Below are positions 4,403-56,412 of a stretch of DNA of 56,412 nt, piece by piece. The stretch comes from a virus (lineage: Duplodnaviria > Heunggongvirae > Uroviricota > Caudoviricetes). The notes under the pieces are model-generated. The model was not told the origin of the DNA and did not search any database. It saw nothing but the letters and a program-made list of their open reading frames with translations. Within the stretch, counting starts at the first letter, position 1. The number at the start of each line of letters is the position of its first letter. The translations under genes were made by a program, and so were the position numbers. Location of the stretch: IMG/VR virus record IMGVR_UViG_2718218136_000004. One strand, given 5' to 3'.

Positions 4403-4455
4403 GGGCGGCAGAGCAGTCACGGAGTAAAACTGATACCGCCAAACGTCACCAGAAA
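4403..4455 (-). ncRNA. dicF: DicF small regulatory RNA (ftsZ-targeting sRNA of Qin-type prophages)
   Basis: Minus-strand sequence TTTCTGGTGACGTTTGGCGGTATCAGTTTTACTCCGTGACTGCTCTGCCGCCC followed by a T-run matches the recalled 53-nt DicF; located between ydfC-like and dicB as in the K-12 dicB operon. Confidence 0.65.
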
Positions 4456-10961: not shown

Positions 10962-11172
10962 AAACGGTTTGCGGGAAAAGGAGAGTTAAGTAGAATTGCA
11001 GCGGGTGCTTGAGGCTATCTGTCTCAGGCATGAACACCAAAAGGCAGATAGAGAAAAGCCCCAGTTAACATTACGCGTCCGGCAAGACGCTTAACATTAA
11101 TCTGAGGCTCAATCTATGAACGGCAAATCTAGGTTAGCCTCTTACGTGCCGAAAGGCAAGGAGAAGCAGGCT

Positions 11173-11328
11173 ATGAAGCAGCAAAAGGCGATGTTAGTCG
11201 CCCTGATCGTCATCTGTATTACCGTCATTGTGACGGCACTGGTAACGAGGAAAGACCTCTGCGAGGTACGAATCCGAACCGGCCAGACGGAGGTCGCTGT
11301 CTTCACAGCTTACGAACCTGAGGAGTAA
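11173..11328 (+). CDS. hokD: Hok/Gef-family type I toxin, HokD (RelF)-like
   Basis: MKQQKAMLVALIVICITVIVTALVTRKDLCEVRIRTGQTEVAVFTAYEPEE is near-identical to recalled K-12 HokD; AAGGAG RBS; upstream in-frame extension to 11116. Confidence 0.8.
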   Translation: MKQQKAMLVALIVICITVIVTALVTRKDLCEVRIRTGQTEVAVFTAYEPEE

Positions 11329-13427: not shown

Positions 13428-13793
13428 ATGACTGAACGCATAGAATTTGTTTTGCCTTACCCGCCGACGGTGAATACCTACTGGCGACGTCATGGCAATA
13501 CGTATTTCATCTCGGAAGCCGGAAAGCGTTATCGCCGTGATGTGGCGCTAATTGTTCGCCAGCAGCGGCTGAAATTAAACCTGTCCGGAAGGCTGGCGAT
13601 AAAGATTATTGCAGAGCCACCGGATAAGCGCCGCCGCGACCTGGACAATATCCTGAAGGCACCACTGGATGCGCTGACGCATGCCGGACTTCTCATAGAC
13701 GACGAGCAGTTTGATGAAATCAATATTGTGCGCGGACTGCCTGTTCCTGGTGGTCGGCTGGGGATAAAAATCACAGAACTGGAGTGCGCATGA
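13428..13793 (+). CDS. rusA: Holliday junction resolvase RusA
   Basis: 121 aa; LPYPPTVNTYWR...RRRDLDNILKAPLDALT...GGRLGIKITELE matches the RusA family. Confidence 0.85.
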   Translation: MTERIEFVLPYPPTVNTYWRRHGNTYFISEAGKRYRRDVALIVRQQRLKLNLSGRLAIKIIAEPPDKRRRDLDNILKAPLDALTHAGLLIDDEQFDEINIVRGLPVPGGRLGIKITELECA

Positions 13794-14479
13794 ATAACCA
13801 GTATTTACAGTTTGTGCGTGAGCAGCTCATTATCGCTACCGCTGATTTGAGTGGGGCAACAAAAGGTCAGCTTGAAGCCTGGCAGGAGAATGCCATGTTT
13901 GATACAGGGCGTTACAGGCGTAAAAAAATCCGGTACCGCGATGAAGTGACTGGAAGAATGATAACGCGGGATAGTCCACCGATACCGGGAAAACAATCAC
14001 TGGCGAAAGGCTCATCAATTGCTCTGGTAAGTCAGGTTGAGTTTTCGACATCATCATGGCGACGGGCAGTTCTGTCTCTTGAAGAACATCATAAAGCCTG
14101 GTTGTTGTGGTGTTACAGCGGGATTATTTGTTGGGAATATCAGATCGCGATAACACAGTGGGCGTGGAATGAATTTAATACTCAATCCGGTACCAGAAAA
14201 ATTGCAGGGAAAACGCAGGAACGCCTGAAAAAATTAATCTGGCTGGCGGCGCAGGCAGTAAAAGCAGAACTTTTTGGTGGGGAAGGTTATGAATACCAGG
14301 AGCTGGCATTACTGGCGGGAGTGACAACTAAAAACTGGTCCAAAACATTTACTCGTCACTGGGTTGCAATGAAACACATTTTTCACCGACTTGATAGTGA
14401 GGCTTTATTGTTTGTAATGAGAACACGTTCAAAACAAAAGGCGGCATTTTCAAAGCAAAGTGTTGCAAAAGTAGATTGA
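13790..14479 (+). CDS. Putative late-gene antiterminator Q-like protein
   Basis: ~230-aa ORF immediately upstream of a promoter-plus-terminator unit and the tRNA/lysis region, the canonical Q position; family assignment by position more than sequence. Confidence 0.45.
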   Translation: MNNQYLQFVREQLIIATADLSGATKGQLEAWQENAMFDTGRYRRKKIRYRDEVTGRMITRDSPPIPGKQSLAKGSSIALVSQVEFSTSSWRRAVLSLEEHHKAWLLWCYSGIICWEYQIAITQWAWNEFNTQSGTRKIAGKTQERLKKLIWLAAQAVKAELFGGEGYEYQELALLAGVTTKNWSKTFTRHWVAMKHIFHRLDSEALLFVMRTRSKQKAAFSKQSVAKVD

Positions 14480-14491
14480 AAGGCATATATT
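14463..14491 (+). promoter_or_regulatory. Candidate late promoter pR' (TTGCAA-17 bp-TATATT)
   Basis: Sigma70-like -35/-10 with 17-bp spacing just after the Q-like gene and ~55 nt upstream of an intrinsic terminator. Confidence 0.4.
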
Positions 14492-14543
14492 TCATGCAAA
14501 TCTGATATTTTGCCGATTTTGTACGTGATGGCAAAAGCAAACA

Positions 14544-14570
14544 AAACCCGCCCACAAGCGGGTTTTTTTG
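14544..14570 (+). terminator. Intrinsic terminator (tR'-like)
   Basis: CCCGC-CCACAA-GCGGG stem-loop followed by TTTTTTT. Confidence 0.6.
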
Positions 14571-14689
14571 TGCCACTTATCTCGGATAGAAATGGTGAAT
14601 GCGCTGGTGGAGGAAGTAAGGGTAATTTTTAACTAGGTGATTCTTGAATGCTTGCAACATTTATTTCGTAACGTTATTATCCTGCGCCC

Positions 14690-14765
14690 GGCCCTTTAGC
14701 TCAGTGGTGAGAGCGAGCGACTCATAATCGCCAGGTCGCTGGTTCAAATCCAGCAAGGGCCACCA
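14690..14765 (+). tRNA. tRNA with CAU anticodon, tRNA-Ile2 (ileX/ileZ-like) or Met
   Basis: 76 nt; 7-bp acceptor stem GGCCCTT/AAGGGCC, D-arm with GG, anticodon loop CTCATAA, T-loop TTCAAAT, 3' CCA. Confidence 0.8.
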
Positions 14766-14766
14766 A

Positions 14767-14843
14767 CCGTCACCAGTTCATCAGGAAAGAGCGTCAACCC
14801 TTTAAGTTGAGTGTGCGAAGTTCGAGTCCCCGGTGGCGGTCCA
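14767..14843 (+). tRNA. tRNA-like sequence, non-canonical (possible pseudo-tRNA)
   Basis: Acceptor stem 7/7 paired (one G-U), D-stem GTTC/GAGC, anticodon stem TCAAC/GTTGA with loop CCTTTAA (C at position 33), T-loop TTCGAGT but T-stem does not pair. Confidence 0.3.
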
Positions 14844-14845
14844 GT

Positions 14846-14921
<76 letters not shown>

Positions 14922-14924
14922 TAT

Positions 14925-14999
<75 letters not shown>

Positions 15000-15202
15000 G
15001 TTAGAGTCTTTCAGTCTGCGATGATGGGAAATCCCGGAGTGACTGAAAGACGTTTAAGTTATGAATGATCGCCTTTTTTTGCAAAATTGCTGTGCAGAAA
15101 TACTAACCTTCGGGCAGGCGATCATTCATAAGCACTCTGCTTTTATTCCGATTAACTGTGGGTGGTTTGTTGGATAGAGTGCTTTCCTTACTGTATATAT
15201 TG

Positions 15203-15230
15203 TTTCGCCCGCTTTTGCGGGCTTTTCTTT
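15203..15230 (+). terminator. Stem-loop plus T-run upstream of the lysis cassette
   Basis: CGCCCGC-TTTT-GCGGGC followed by TTTTCTTTT. Confidence 0.4.
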
Positions 15231-15291
15231 TCAAATCCCTTTCATTTCTCAGTGTAAAACTACGCCATCCGTTATTTGCGGAGGTGAGGCT

Positions 15292-15507
15292 ATGAAATCC
15301 ATGGACAAAATTTCAACGGGCATTGCCTATGGCACCTCCGCAGGCAGTGCTGGCTACTGGTTTTTACAGTGGCTTGATCAGGTCAGTCCGTCACAGTGGG
15401 CTGCGATTGGTGTGCTGGGGAGTCTGGTTCTGGGCTTCCTGACTTATCTGACAAATCTGTACTTCAAAATCAGAGAAGACAAGCGTAAGGCTGCACGGGG
15501 AGAGTAA
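15292..15507 (+). CDS. Class II holin (pinholin), phage 21 S21-like, dual-start motif
   Basis: [63 protein letters not shown]... matches recalled S21; Met1/Met4 dual start; GGAGGTGAGG RBS. Confidence 0.85.
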
Positions 15508-15511
15508 TTCA

Positions 15512-15862
15512 ATGACTCAAAACTATGAACTGATTGTGAAAGGGATCCGCAATTTTGAGAATAAAGTTACGGTAACTTTAGCGTTACGGGACAAAAAACG
15601 CTTTGACGGCGAAATTTTTGACCTGGACATCTCGCTGGACCGTGTTGAAGGTGCCGCGCTGGAGTTTTATGAGGCAGCAGCCAGAAGGAGCATCAGACAG
15701 GTCTTCCTGGATGTTGCTGCCGGGTTATGTGAAGGGGATGAGCAGTCGCCGGAAAAGCGCCCCGTAATTTTAGAGGCGCAGAATGTGTGGATAACCTGCA
15801 AAGGAAAGCTACCAGGAAGAATTACTGGTTCTCTGAAGACTCCTCCGGAATCACAACCTTAA
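15512..15862 (+). CDS. Hypothetical protein inserted between holin and endolysin
   Basis: 116-aa ORF with GGGGAG RBS; no recognised family. Confidence 0.45.
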   Translation: MTQNYELIVKGIRNFENKVTVTLALRDKKRFDGEIFDLDISLDRVEGAALEFYEAAARRSIRQVFLDVAAGLCEGDEQSPEKRPVILEAQNVWITCKGKLPGRITGSLKTPPESQP

Positions 15863-23650: not shown

Positions 23651-24190
23651 ATGCTAAATCATACCACACACCCGCAAGGGCGGGACTCGCACAACCTGAA
23701 TAAACCCGATGTAAAAAACCTGTTGATCGCCACTGCCAGCCAGGGCTATGATTTACCCGCACCAGCAAAATCTGGTGCCGGGATTGGCGTCCTGGTATTT
23801 AACGAAGCGCACAACACGCGCCCTGCGTGTTTTTTTGTGCCGGATAGTCACACCTTATCAATGGTGGGCTGTATGGGGGCGGAGCAATCCGCGCCGGGTT
23901 CTTCGTTAACCGGTTACGCCAACCCTGTACAGTCCACCGCCAGCGAAATTGGCGTTTCCTGCGGTGGGTTTATTAAACCTAACGAAGAGGCTGCCAACAT
24001 GGCTACTATCCCTACCCTTGTACATTCCCAAACTGCCTTTATCTGGCGCTTTATCATCTTTGGCGCGTCAGAGTCCCAAATCATCCACGTCACCGCCTGG
24101 ACGGAACGCGAAGCGCGTAACCATTGCCCGTCAGGTTGTGTCGCTGTATTCGCCGCCCGTATTCGTCAGGGGGTGCGCCATGTGCAATAA
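23651..24190 (+). CDS. Hypothetical protein (first gene of satellite rightward operon)
   Basis: GAGG RBS before ATG at 23651; stop overlaps next start; amino-acid composition not strongly protein-like. Confidence 0.3.
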
Positions 24191-55831: not shown

Positions 55832-56412
55832 TGGCATTCAGAATGAGTGAACAACCACGGACCATAAAAATTTATAATCTGCTGGCCGGAACTAATGAAT
55901 TTATTGGTGAAGGTGACGCATATATTCCGCCTCATACCGGTCTGCCTGCAGACAGTACCGATATTGCACCGCCAGATATTCCGGCTGGCTTTGTGGCTGT
56001 TTTCAACAGTGATGAGGCATCGTGGAATCTCGTTGAAGATCATCGGGGTAAAACGGTTTATGACGTGGCATCAGGGGACGCGTTATTTATTTCTGAACTC
56101 GGTCCGTTACCGGAAAATGTTACCTGGTTGTCGCCGGAAGGGGAATATCAGAAGTGGAACGGTACAGCCTGGGTGAAAGATGCAGAAGCAGAAAAACTGT
56201 TCCGGATCCGGGAGGCGGAAGAAACAAAAAACAGCCTGATGCAGGCAGCGAATGAGCATATTGCGCCACTTCAGGATGCTGTAGATCTGGAAATCGCAAC
56301 GGAGGAAGAAAACTCGTTGCTGGAAGCCTGGAAAAAGTATCGGGTGTTGCTGAACCGTGTTAATACAACAACTGCACCGGATATTGAATGGCCAGTAGCA
56401 CCTATAGGGTAA
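55831..56412 (+). CDS. tfa: Tail fibre assembly protein
   Basis: [39 protein letters not shown]... matches lambda Tfa; stop TAA at 56410-56412. Confidence 0.85.

Follow-up and report, generated by a model that had tools for sequence, protein, structure and literature searches.

The window analysed here is a whole stretch of 56,412 nucleotides (nt) from a virus of the Caudoviricetes (IMG/VR virus record IMGVR_UViG_2718218136_000004), and the element in question occupies the spacer between its transfer RNA (tRNA) genes and its holin gene. Upstream, the + strand encodes RusA (13428-13793) and the antiterminator Q (13784-14479), followed by an array of tRNAs that ends in tRNA-Gly(UCC) (14925-14999). 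A spacer of 292 nt leads from tRNA-Gly to a P21-type holin gene (15292-15507), and genes for a DUF1327 protein, lysozyme and Rz lie downstream. An initial annotation of this DNA had placed two perfect inverted repeats between tRNA-Gly and the holin gene, and this position is correct. Our best reading, drawn from sequence comparison, is that the two repeats represent helices, from now on referred to as HP1 and HP2, of a structured non-coding RNA of ~230 nt encoded on the + strand (about 15001-15232).

The first repeat pairs GTCTTTCAGTC (15006-15016) with GACTGAAAGAC (15041-15051) and is a perfect match of 11 base pairs (bp) with 24 nt between the arms, as initially described. The second repeat is likewise present, but its arms are longer than the 15 bp around a 43-nt loop first assigned to it: TTATGAATGATCGCCT (15059-15074) pairs with AGGCGATCATTCATAA (15116-15131) over 16 perfect base pairs, one more than originally called, leaving 41 nt between the arms. 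The gap from the first repeat to the second is 8 bases. No other perfect inverted repeat in the window combines arms of 11 nt or more with a loop of up to 50 nt, and 30 shuffles of the dinucleotide type contained on average 0.6 such repeats at arms of at least 11 nt and none at arms of at least 14 nt. The 233-nt + strand RNA spanning 15000-15232 has a folding energy of -85.8 kcal/mol, compared with -56.7 ± 4.6 kcal/mol for shuffled sequences (z = -6.3). Both repeats are real and go beyond what chance would produce. It had also been pointed out that neither repeat carries a terminator-style T-run at its 3' side, which is true of the sequence: the 3' flanks are GTTTAAGTT for HP1 and GCACTCTGC for HP2, neither hairpin leads directly into a T-run, and a terminator scan flags neither of them.

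The element is made up of four structural parts, namely HP1, HP2, HP3 and an intrinsic terminator, and folds as three compound hairpins followed by the terminator. HP1 and HP2 had been seen initially while HP3 and the terminator, the other two parts, had been overlooked. HP1 (15006-15051, + strand) corresponds to the first repeat and consists of an 11-bp outer stem, a kink-turn-like internal loop, an inner stem UGGG/CCCG and the loop AAAU. HP2 (15059-15131, + strand) corresponds to the second repeat and contains a 16-bp outer stem enclosing two small hairpins, the first of which (15076-15100) presents an invariant 9-nt apical loop, AAAUUGCUG, and the second of which is CC-UUCG-GG at 15107-15114. 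HP3 (15131-15183, + strand) is formed by an outer stem, AGCACUCUG/UAGAGUGCU, and a G.U-rich inner helix whose 3' strand is the invariant G/U-rich sequence GGGUGGUUUGUUGGAU (15160-15175), a candidate seed or recognition sequence. The terminator (15207-15232, + strand; hairpin at 15207-15222 plus T-run) was identified by terminator scan, has the sequence GCCCGC-UUUU-GCGGGC followed by UUUUCUUUUC, and is the sole + strand terminator between tRNA-Gly and the holin gene. Immediately 5' of the terminator lies UUUCCUUACUGUAUAUAUUGUUUC; the element thus has both the U-rich stretch and the U tail of Hfq-type small RNAs (sRNAs). A potential internal promoter in the HP2 loop (TTGCAA-16-TACTAA) was considered and rejected, as only 7 of its 12 positions agree with the consensus, its -10 element does not end in the conserved T and the promoter scan did not call it.

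The internal loop of HP1 can be read as a putative kink-turn (k-turn). The k-turn class includes Kt-7, box C/D and riboswitch k-turns, with box C corresponding to RUGAUGA and box D to CUGA. Positions 15018-15040 of HP1 fit the k-turn sequence pattern, with a C-stem formed by G15018-C15019 and G15039-U15040, a 3-nt bulge GAU (15020-15022), tandem G.A/A.G pairs formed by GA at 15023-15024 opposite GA at 15037-15038, and an NC-stem. Besides this consensus layout, the AUGAUG ... GGA of HP1 resembles box C and box D. Both GA dinucleotides are kept in 8 of 10 HP1 variants that were collected without constraint on the HP1 loop, and the variant changes fall at bulge position L1 or L3 or at the 3b.3n pair (U.G, U.U or A.G), positions at which k-turns tolerate changes. 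In contrast to the known class, HP1 is dispensable in many relatives and its kink is predicted from sequence layout. We know of no L7Ae-type k-turn binding protein in E. coli. The possibility that HP1 arose by decay from a copied T-arm region of tRNA-Gly was rejected, since the two have only the 7-mer GATGATG in common and their alignment score was equalled by 329 of 2000 shuffles.

Conservation of the fold was analysed in a main alignment of 53 distinct sequences, all of which were gathered via the HP1 loop only. At the proposed helices, 95.3% of alignment cells form standard pairs, compared with 37-45% after sliding the 3' partners by 1-3 columns, and 12 pairs change on both sides yet stay paired, compared with 2-7 after sliding. 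The 12 compensatory pairs are found in HP1 (two), the HP2 outer stem (five), the HP2 inner hairpin (one), the HP3 outer stem (three) and the terminator (one). At one HP2 pair (alignment columns 89/105) the full series from U-A via U.G to C-G is represented. RNAalifold, run with no input structure, returned the same helices with 63 pairs, 12 of them compensatory. A less redundant set of 27 cores, which included loci found through other search patterns, yielded 91.2% paired cells compared with 42-48% after sliding, and again 12 compensatory pairs. Cells with G.U outnumber those with A.C by 499 to 85 in the main alignment and by 146 to 52 in the 27-core set; because G.U cells are valid pairs on the + strand only, this excess argues for a + strand RNA. 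The element is co-oriented with the tRNAs, and a + strand terminator is always located 3' of it. A structured RNA was one of several options raised initially for the repeats, and it is the one borne out by the compensatory and wobble changes, the independent RNAalifold fold and the bounds set by the tRNA 3' end on one side and the intrinsic terminator on the other. With regard to sequence, the HP2 apical region UUUUUGCAAAAUUGCUGUG, which contains AAAUUGCUG, and the HP3 sequence GGGUGGUUUGUUGGAU are invariant in the HP1-selected alignment, in which the clades differ by ~24%. The 5' strand of the HP3 inner helix, opposite GGGUGGUUUGUUGGAU, varies solely by wobble-to-Watson-Crick changes.

Of 5,426 complete E. 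coli genomes, 522-539 carry the spacer, with nothing annotated beneath it and in most cases at 95-100% identity; strain G749 has a copy of 100% identity, and that of E. coli 042 (NZ_CP042934.2:1637631-1637922) reaches 99.7%. Four deposited E. coli phages contain the spacer at about 98% identity. The core of the element (HP2, HP3 and terminator) is by itself found in 535 complete E. coli genomes. Diverged versions of the spacer show 93%, 88% and about 76% identity, the last being those of phage HK639 and strain OW1E2, and three pattern scans of viral contigs yielded more than 150 further loci. The initial annotation had let its case depend on the same spacer in related prophages, where the repeats proved to be conserved and to lie outside any annotated element. 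When genomes were scanned at the species level for the HP1 loop pattern, real matches were limited to E. coli and Shigella flexneri; the other 11 matches were taken as chance because the high-G+C sequence around them is unrelated and contains no part of the element. An HP2-only relative is found in the Salmonella prophage Fels-1. Nearly all examined copies are located in the Q-to-lysis region of a lambdoid prophage. The element occurs at a median of one and a maximum of 5 places per genome and once in the window, a distribution that does not qualify it as a dispersed repeat, miniature inverted-repeat transposable element or repetitive extragenic palindrome.

The tRNAs upstream of the element have a promoter of their own. 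A promoter scan identified a sigma-70-type promoter at 14652-14680 (+ strand; -35 TTGCAA, 17-nt spacer, -10 TATTAT), separated from the first tRNA by a 9-nt G+C-rich stretch. Related loci provide 46 distinct upstream regions with a median pairwise identity of only 45%, and the motif TTGNNN-17-TANNNT is present in 45 of them, ending 9 nt before the first tRNA in 42 cases, while its rate in shuffles is 1.4%. The conserved -10 element is mostly TATTAT or TATCAT. The first gene of the array is a tRNA with anticodon CAT (14690-14765, + strand), called Met by ARAGORN and annotated as tRNA-Ile for the same gene in relatives by the Prokaryotic Genome Annotation Pipeline. It is followed by a tRNA-Lys(UUU)-like sequence (14767-14843, + strand), which receives no ARAGORN call here and is 2 positions off a copy called tRNA-Lys(ttt) in a related locus (L011), and by tRNA-Thr(UGU) (14846-14921, + strand). 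The final tRNA-Gly(UCC), also on the + strand, is identical to the E. coli chromosomal tRNA-Gly. Relatives show the array order tRNA(CAT), variable slot, tRNA-Thr(UGU) and tRNA-Gly(UCC), the slot at 14767-14843 being filled by Lys, Arg, Phe, Leu, Asn and others.

Both ends of the spacer are tightly defined. The element begins 6 nt 3' of tRNA-Gly, with HP1 starting at 15006, and the HP1 loop starts exactly 17 nt past tRNA-Gly(UCC) in 107 of 125 loci, most of the others retaining a truncated 3' part of tRNA-Gly. At one locus (L008, ~1907-1960), the 5' half of tRNA-Gly is fused to the HP1 loop at the common GATGATG, with loss of the tRNA remainder and the HP1 5' arm, a junction that looks like a microhomology deletion. 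At the other end, at least three unrelated terminator hairpins, each with a T-run, are found at the same place in relatives; they have been swapped between clades, and a terminator is always present. The HK639 record carries the depositors' terminator annotation at the corresponding site. The conserved promoter, the fixed coupling to tRNA-Gly and the always-kept terminator indicate that the promoter, 3 or 4 tRNAs, trailer and terminator constitute a self-contained moron, located just after the terminator tR' and between Q and the holin gene, and that the spacer is the 3' external transcribed spacer of this operon. By position, the late promoter PR' and terminator tR' would correspond to 14463-14573, where a promoter-like site (14463-14491) and, after it, a hairpin ending in a T7 run (14543-14573) lie just 3' of Q. 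The short PR'-tR' transcript is by position the counterpart of lambda 6S RNA and StxS, and 14463-14573 shows weak sub-threshold Rfam similarity to isrK and isrJ (E 0.02-0.06).

Scans without an HP1 requirement, by which the core was defined, indicate that HP2, HP3 and the terminator represent the functional core, with HP1 as an accessory that is confined to loci in which the core lies behind tRNA-Gly and is lacking from some of these. In seven loci (L143, L146, L147, L149, L150, L156 and L170) the core is located directly 3' of tRNA-Gly with no HP1, and in eight others, including L154, it is found 3' of a small coding gene that is DUF3927-like, the family name being taken from the homologous annotation in strain E2348/69. 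Two loci (L158 and L164) have the core joined to a different HP2-like hairpin that keeps the stem base only. The downstream gene also varies; it encodes a P21-type holin in 86 of 117 loci and at least five other, unrelated kinds of putative membrane or holin protein elsewhere. Insertion sequences adjoin the module in two cases, an IS5-type end upstream of it in L154 (3040-3400, read on the - strand) and the end of a transposase gene that abuts HP3 in L160, which shows that the module site is an insertion target.

A second RNA family is repeatedly found next to the module, namely the known Hfq-associated sRNA family STnc100, which is related to PasD (Rfam RF02076; Pearl Mizrahi et al. 2021, PMC8550237; Zhu, Shabalina and Storz 2026, bioRxiv 10.64898/2026.05.13.724894). 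STnc100-family RNAs beside the module are located at 1754-1959 in L001 (HK639), 1710-1902 in L002, 2489-2686 (- strand) in L154, 6582-7118 (- strand) in L155 and 1810-2028 in L181 (Fels-1). STnc100 lies directly 3' of the module in HK639 and L154 and upstream of it in L155, takes the place of HP3 in OW1E2 and comes after the HP2-only relative in Fels-1; the HK639 record annotates terminators only and no STnc100. Because these STnc100-type neighbours each have their own terminator, the Q-to-holin region can be viewed as an array of portable RNA modules. Similar to the element, STnc100/PasD is a structured RNA of ~170-200 nt that is encoded in the lambdoid Q-to-holin region on the late-operon strand and has its own terminator, but its sequence and fold are unlike those of the element. 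The RF02076 model, which finds STnc100 beside the module in relatives, gave no match in 14300-15600 at E = 10, and a whole-window covariance scan at gathering score found no STnc100 in the window; identity of the element with STnc100 was therefore rejected.

The element belongs to no Rfam family and is unannotated. An Rfam scan of 14300-15600 with E up to 10 returned three tRNAs and weak sub-threshold noise, with nothing in 15000-15200, and a whole-window scan at gathering score returned nothing at the element. No description of it was found in the literature, where a full-text search with its sequence strings gave one irrelevant match and keyword searches gave none. Identity with PasA, PasB, PasC or PasD was rejected, as none of the four probe sequences from enteropathogenic E. 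coli (EPEC), nor their complements, is present in the window. AgvB and AsxR, anti-sRNAs encoded by prophages of enterohaemorrhagic E. coli (Rfam RF02702 and RF02703; Tree et al. 2014, PMC4104026), occupy the same niche as the element, the moron insertion site past PR', which is known to carry prophage sRNAs (Tree et al. 2014, PMC4104026). They are prophage regulators of host RNA networks, a role that is putative for the element. However, AgvB and AsxR are primary transcripts of 51-60 nt that are convergent or antisense to the late operon and represent C/A-rich mimics of GcvB targets (CACAACA-type 5' region), whereas the element is ~230 nt long, co-oriented, G/U-rich (GcvB-like rather than anti-GcvB) and probably processed. 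The AgvB/AsxR covariance models matched neither the locus nor any other part of the window. An sRNA candidate located behind a pseudo-tRNA-Gly in prophage PP10 of E2348/69 (Pearl Mizrahi table S6, PMC8550237) was also compared and is unrelated to the element in sequence. In E. coli E2348/69, locus L125 (NC_011601 2837057-2837365) has the candidate E2348C_2757.EST5UTR, detected by ligating and sequencing interacting RNAs (RIL-seq), ~100 nt past a pseudogenic tRNA-Gly, is unrelated in sequence and represents a second instance of an sRNA candidate behind a prophage tRNA-like gene.

The tRNA cluster of phage T4 produces the stable RNAs 'species 1 and 2' (bands C and D). These structured small RNAs are co-transcribed with, and cut from, a phage tRNA cluster, comparable to what is proposed for the element, although T4 is a virulent phage and its RNAs are sited inside the cluster and not as a terminator-proximal trailer. 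By location, STnc100/PasD and AgvB/AsxR are the nearest neighbours of the element. The closest working analogue is 3'ETS-leuZ, which Lalaouna and colleagues reportedly described in 2015 as the 3' external transcribed spacer of the E. coli glyW-cysT-leuZ tRNA operon. 3'ETS-leuZ appears as an sRNA in EPEC sRNA tables. Both RNAs lie between the last tRNA of an operon and its intrinsic terminator, with no other terminator intervening. Both end in an Hfq-suited terminator U tail, and release through tRNA 3' processing with a 5'-monophosphate is predicted for the element as well. The two differ in that they have no sequence similarity, that the element is ~4 times longer with three compound hairpins, and that it is phage-borne with a core also found away from tRNAs. 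For the element, a role as a sponge, binding to Hfq and release by RNase E would be predictions from this analogy.

We hypothesize that the element is a processed, 3'-derived prophage small regulatory RNA that forms the trailer of a tRNA operon and acts in trans, a reading to which we give a probability of roughly 55%. In the lysogen, the operon would be transcribed from its own promoter and transcription would stop at its own terminator. RNase P and RNase E would then free the tRNAs, with a cut within the A/U-rich 6 nt past the CCA end, yielding a 5'-monophosphate RNA of ~230 nt, or ~170 nt where HP1 is absent, whose 5' end would be buried in a stable hairpin. The persisting RNA could work in trans via the HP2 loop AAAUUGCUG and, above all, the G/U-rich GGGUGGUUUGUUGGAU of HP3. 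Most simply, it would pair with C/A-rich RNAs of the host or the phage or titrate another sRNA, and its U-rich terminator module would probably be occupied by Hfq or ProQ. In the lytic phase, polymerase modified by Q would be expected, from what holds for lambdoid late transcription, to pass the terminator, so that the sequence would join the late mRNA leader.

A number of observations weigh against this hypothesis. Most compensatory changes fall between just two main clades and thus amount to few independent events, and the count of covarying pairs did not differ significantly from its shuffle control (12 vs 11.3). Since the homologue search patterns were taken from conserved loops, the invariance of these loops is partly a result of sampling. 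The HP2 outer stem contains an A.C mismatch in clade 2, and the HP2 5' arm is degraded in some variants, for example L004 and L014. In the predicted fold, half of the G/U stretch GGGUGGUUUGUUGGAU is paired, an unusual property for a seed. Within the window its sole perfect complement is the element itself, and no phage target was found, the relevant strand of the window holding no GGGUGGUUUGUUGGAU complement within 3 mismatches. In the EPEC RIL-seq strain, the module is absent from the PasD loci PP2 and PP4, the only places examined. Lastly, the proposed mechanism offers no source of transcription in the lysogen where the core stands without tRNAs.

A purely cis-acting role of the hairpins is possible but considerably less probable. 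Here, the hairpins would be processing or stability signals that part the tRNAs from the lysis mRNA, with no trans-acting product; HP2 could be an RNase III site, and HP1 or HP2 could act as a 5' stem-loop shielding the late mRNA from 5'-end-dependent RNase E. This would suit the location of the hairpins 6 nt past the tRNA 3' end (2-3 nt where HP1 is absent), the spot needed for a protective 5' stem-loop, as well as the long, near-perfect duplex of HP2 and the fact that the region is necessarily within the Q-antiterminated late transcript during lytic growth. A processing site had also been among the initial suggestions; it is compatible with the data and probably part of the story, because the RNA has to be cut from tRNA-Gly. 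Yet it leaves the invariance of two loops amid drifting stems unexplained, and the same is true of the terminator constantly kept right after HP3 and of cores that follow a coding gene, where there is no tRNA to remove. E. coli RNase III typically needs about two helical turns. Compared with the ~20 bp or more that this implies, the HP2 duplex of 16-18 bp (16 bp plus 2 past a small bulge, with an A.C mismatch in clade 2) may fall short.

An unlikely alternative is that the element is no base-pairing sRNA but belongs to a new class of structured phage RNAs that work by shape, which could bind and sequester a host or phage protein as a decoy or as a ribonucleoprotein component expressed from lysogens. 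The features that lead to this proposal are the putative kink-turn hairpin, the multi-helix core, the invariant loops and the carriage together with prophage tRNA arrays. Possible partners could be an RNA-binding regulator or a tRNA-directed defence nuclease that the neighbouring tRNAs would counter.

Still less likely is a cis-regulatory RNA that controls terminator read-through before the lysis genes, either as a put-like RNA that modifies RNA polymerase or as a riboswitch-like sensor. HP2 and HP3 are adjacent conserved stem-loops just before one or more terminators that gate holin expression, and HK639 carries the element. HK639 is known for RNA-mediated antitermination, put RNAs being located in the early operons of HK022 and HK639, and k-turns and multi-helix junctions are common in riboswitches. 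The described put sites are two stem-loops that render RNA polymerase resistant to termination and lie just past an early promoter, which differs from the late, post-tRNA position of the element. However, these phages encode Q, which already handles read-through. A lysogen would not survive if transcription from the tRNA promoter were constitutively antiterminated and ran into the lysis genes. Moreover, terminators were swapped between clades without matching upstream changes, no alternative pairing between HP3 and the terminator was found among the aligned variants inspected, and Rfam returned no riboswitch match at E up to 10.

It is very improbable that the repeats act as DNA, be it as a site for a dimeric protein, as a recombination or cruciform site, or as the ends or scar of a mobile element. 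The arms are perfectly palindromic, and those of a protein-binding palindrome can co-change too. The region is known for frequent mosaic recombination among lambdoid phages (Tree et al. 2014, PMC4104026), and it contains the junction inside HP1 in L008 as well as the insertion sequence beside HP3 in L160. In contrast, wobble (G.U) intermediates and the preponderance of G.U over A.C cells (499:85) are properties of a single RNA strand and not of DNA, and the 24 and 41 nt between the arms contain additional conserved helices. The initial suggestion of a protein-binding palindrome does not sit well with a conserved module whose distance to tRNA-Gly is constant in 107 of 125 loci. Copies are not dispersed but occur at a median of one per genome in the same syntenic position, and neither target-site duplications nor a transposase were found. 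A scar or the remnant of lost cargo, also raised initially, would imply loss, whereas the module is complete, conserved and present once per prophage, and no empty insertion site is marked. The least credible explanation is a 38-residue protein encoded at 15061-15177, MNDRLFLQNCCAEILTFGQAIIHKHSAFIPINCGWFVG: two deposited phage records annotate a hypothetical protein, 27 of 53 distinct variants keep the frame open and some clade-2 sequences have a comparable frame of 38 codons, but the product has no Pfam or family match, the ATG lies inside the HP2 stem with no Shine-Dalgarno sequence before it, at least 15 of 53 variants have the frame broken by changes in T-run length, common ones being cut to 13-14 codons, and the differences between clades are radical for a protein while being compensatory for an RNA.

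Other RNA features were detected elsewhere in the window. Downstream of the spacer, a perfect 10-bp inverted repeat (15277-15286 with 15333-15342) pairs the holin ribosome-binding site (TGCGGAGGTG) with codons 14-17, and the holin N-terminus MKSM corresponds to a dual-start motif; the repeat looks like a start-site control structure of the lambda S kind. Rfam matches above gathering score were obtained for isrK (80 bits, 23759-23835, + strand) and, 22 nt past it, for C4 antisense RNA (75 bits, 23857-23944, + strand). Further matches above gathering score are DicF (4403-4454, - strand), sok antitoxin RNA (11003-11178, + strand) and IS009 (56174-56372, + strand), from which it follows that the prophage holds several known small RNAs besides the element.

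Overall, ~10% of complete E. coli genomes, including those of extraintestinal and enteroaggregative pathogens, carry this unannotated element, which is also found in Shigella flexneri and which, to judge from its sequence context, appears to lie within a unit built for expression from the prophage. The moron site between Q and holin can be described as an array of portable RNA modules consisting of tRNAs, HP1, the HP2-HP3 core and STnc100. For annotators, the element provides a defined new RNA family, and for experimenters it provides a precise construct with seed candidates and a putative k-turn. If it is indeed a working regulator, it would represent a widespread, phage-delivered node added to host RNA networks and the first phage example of an sRNA derived from a tRNA spacer.

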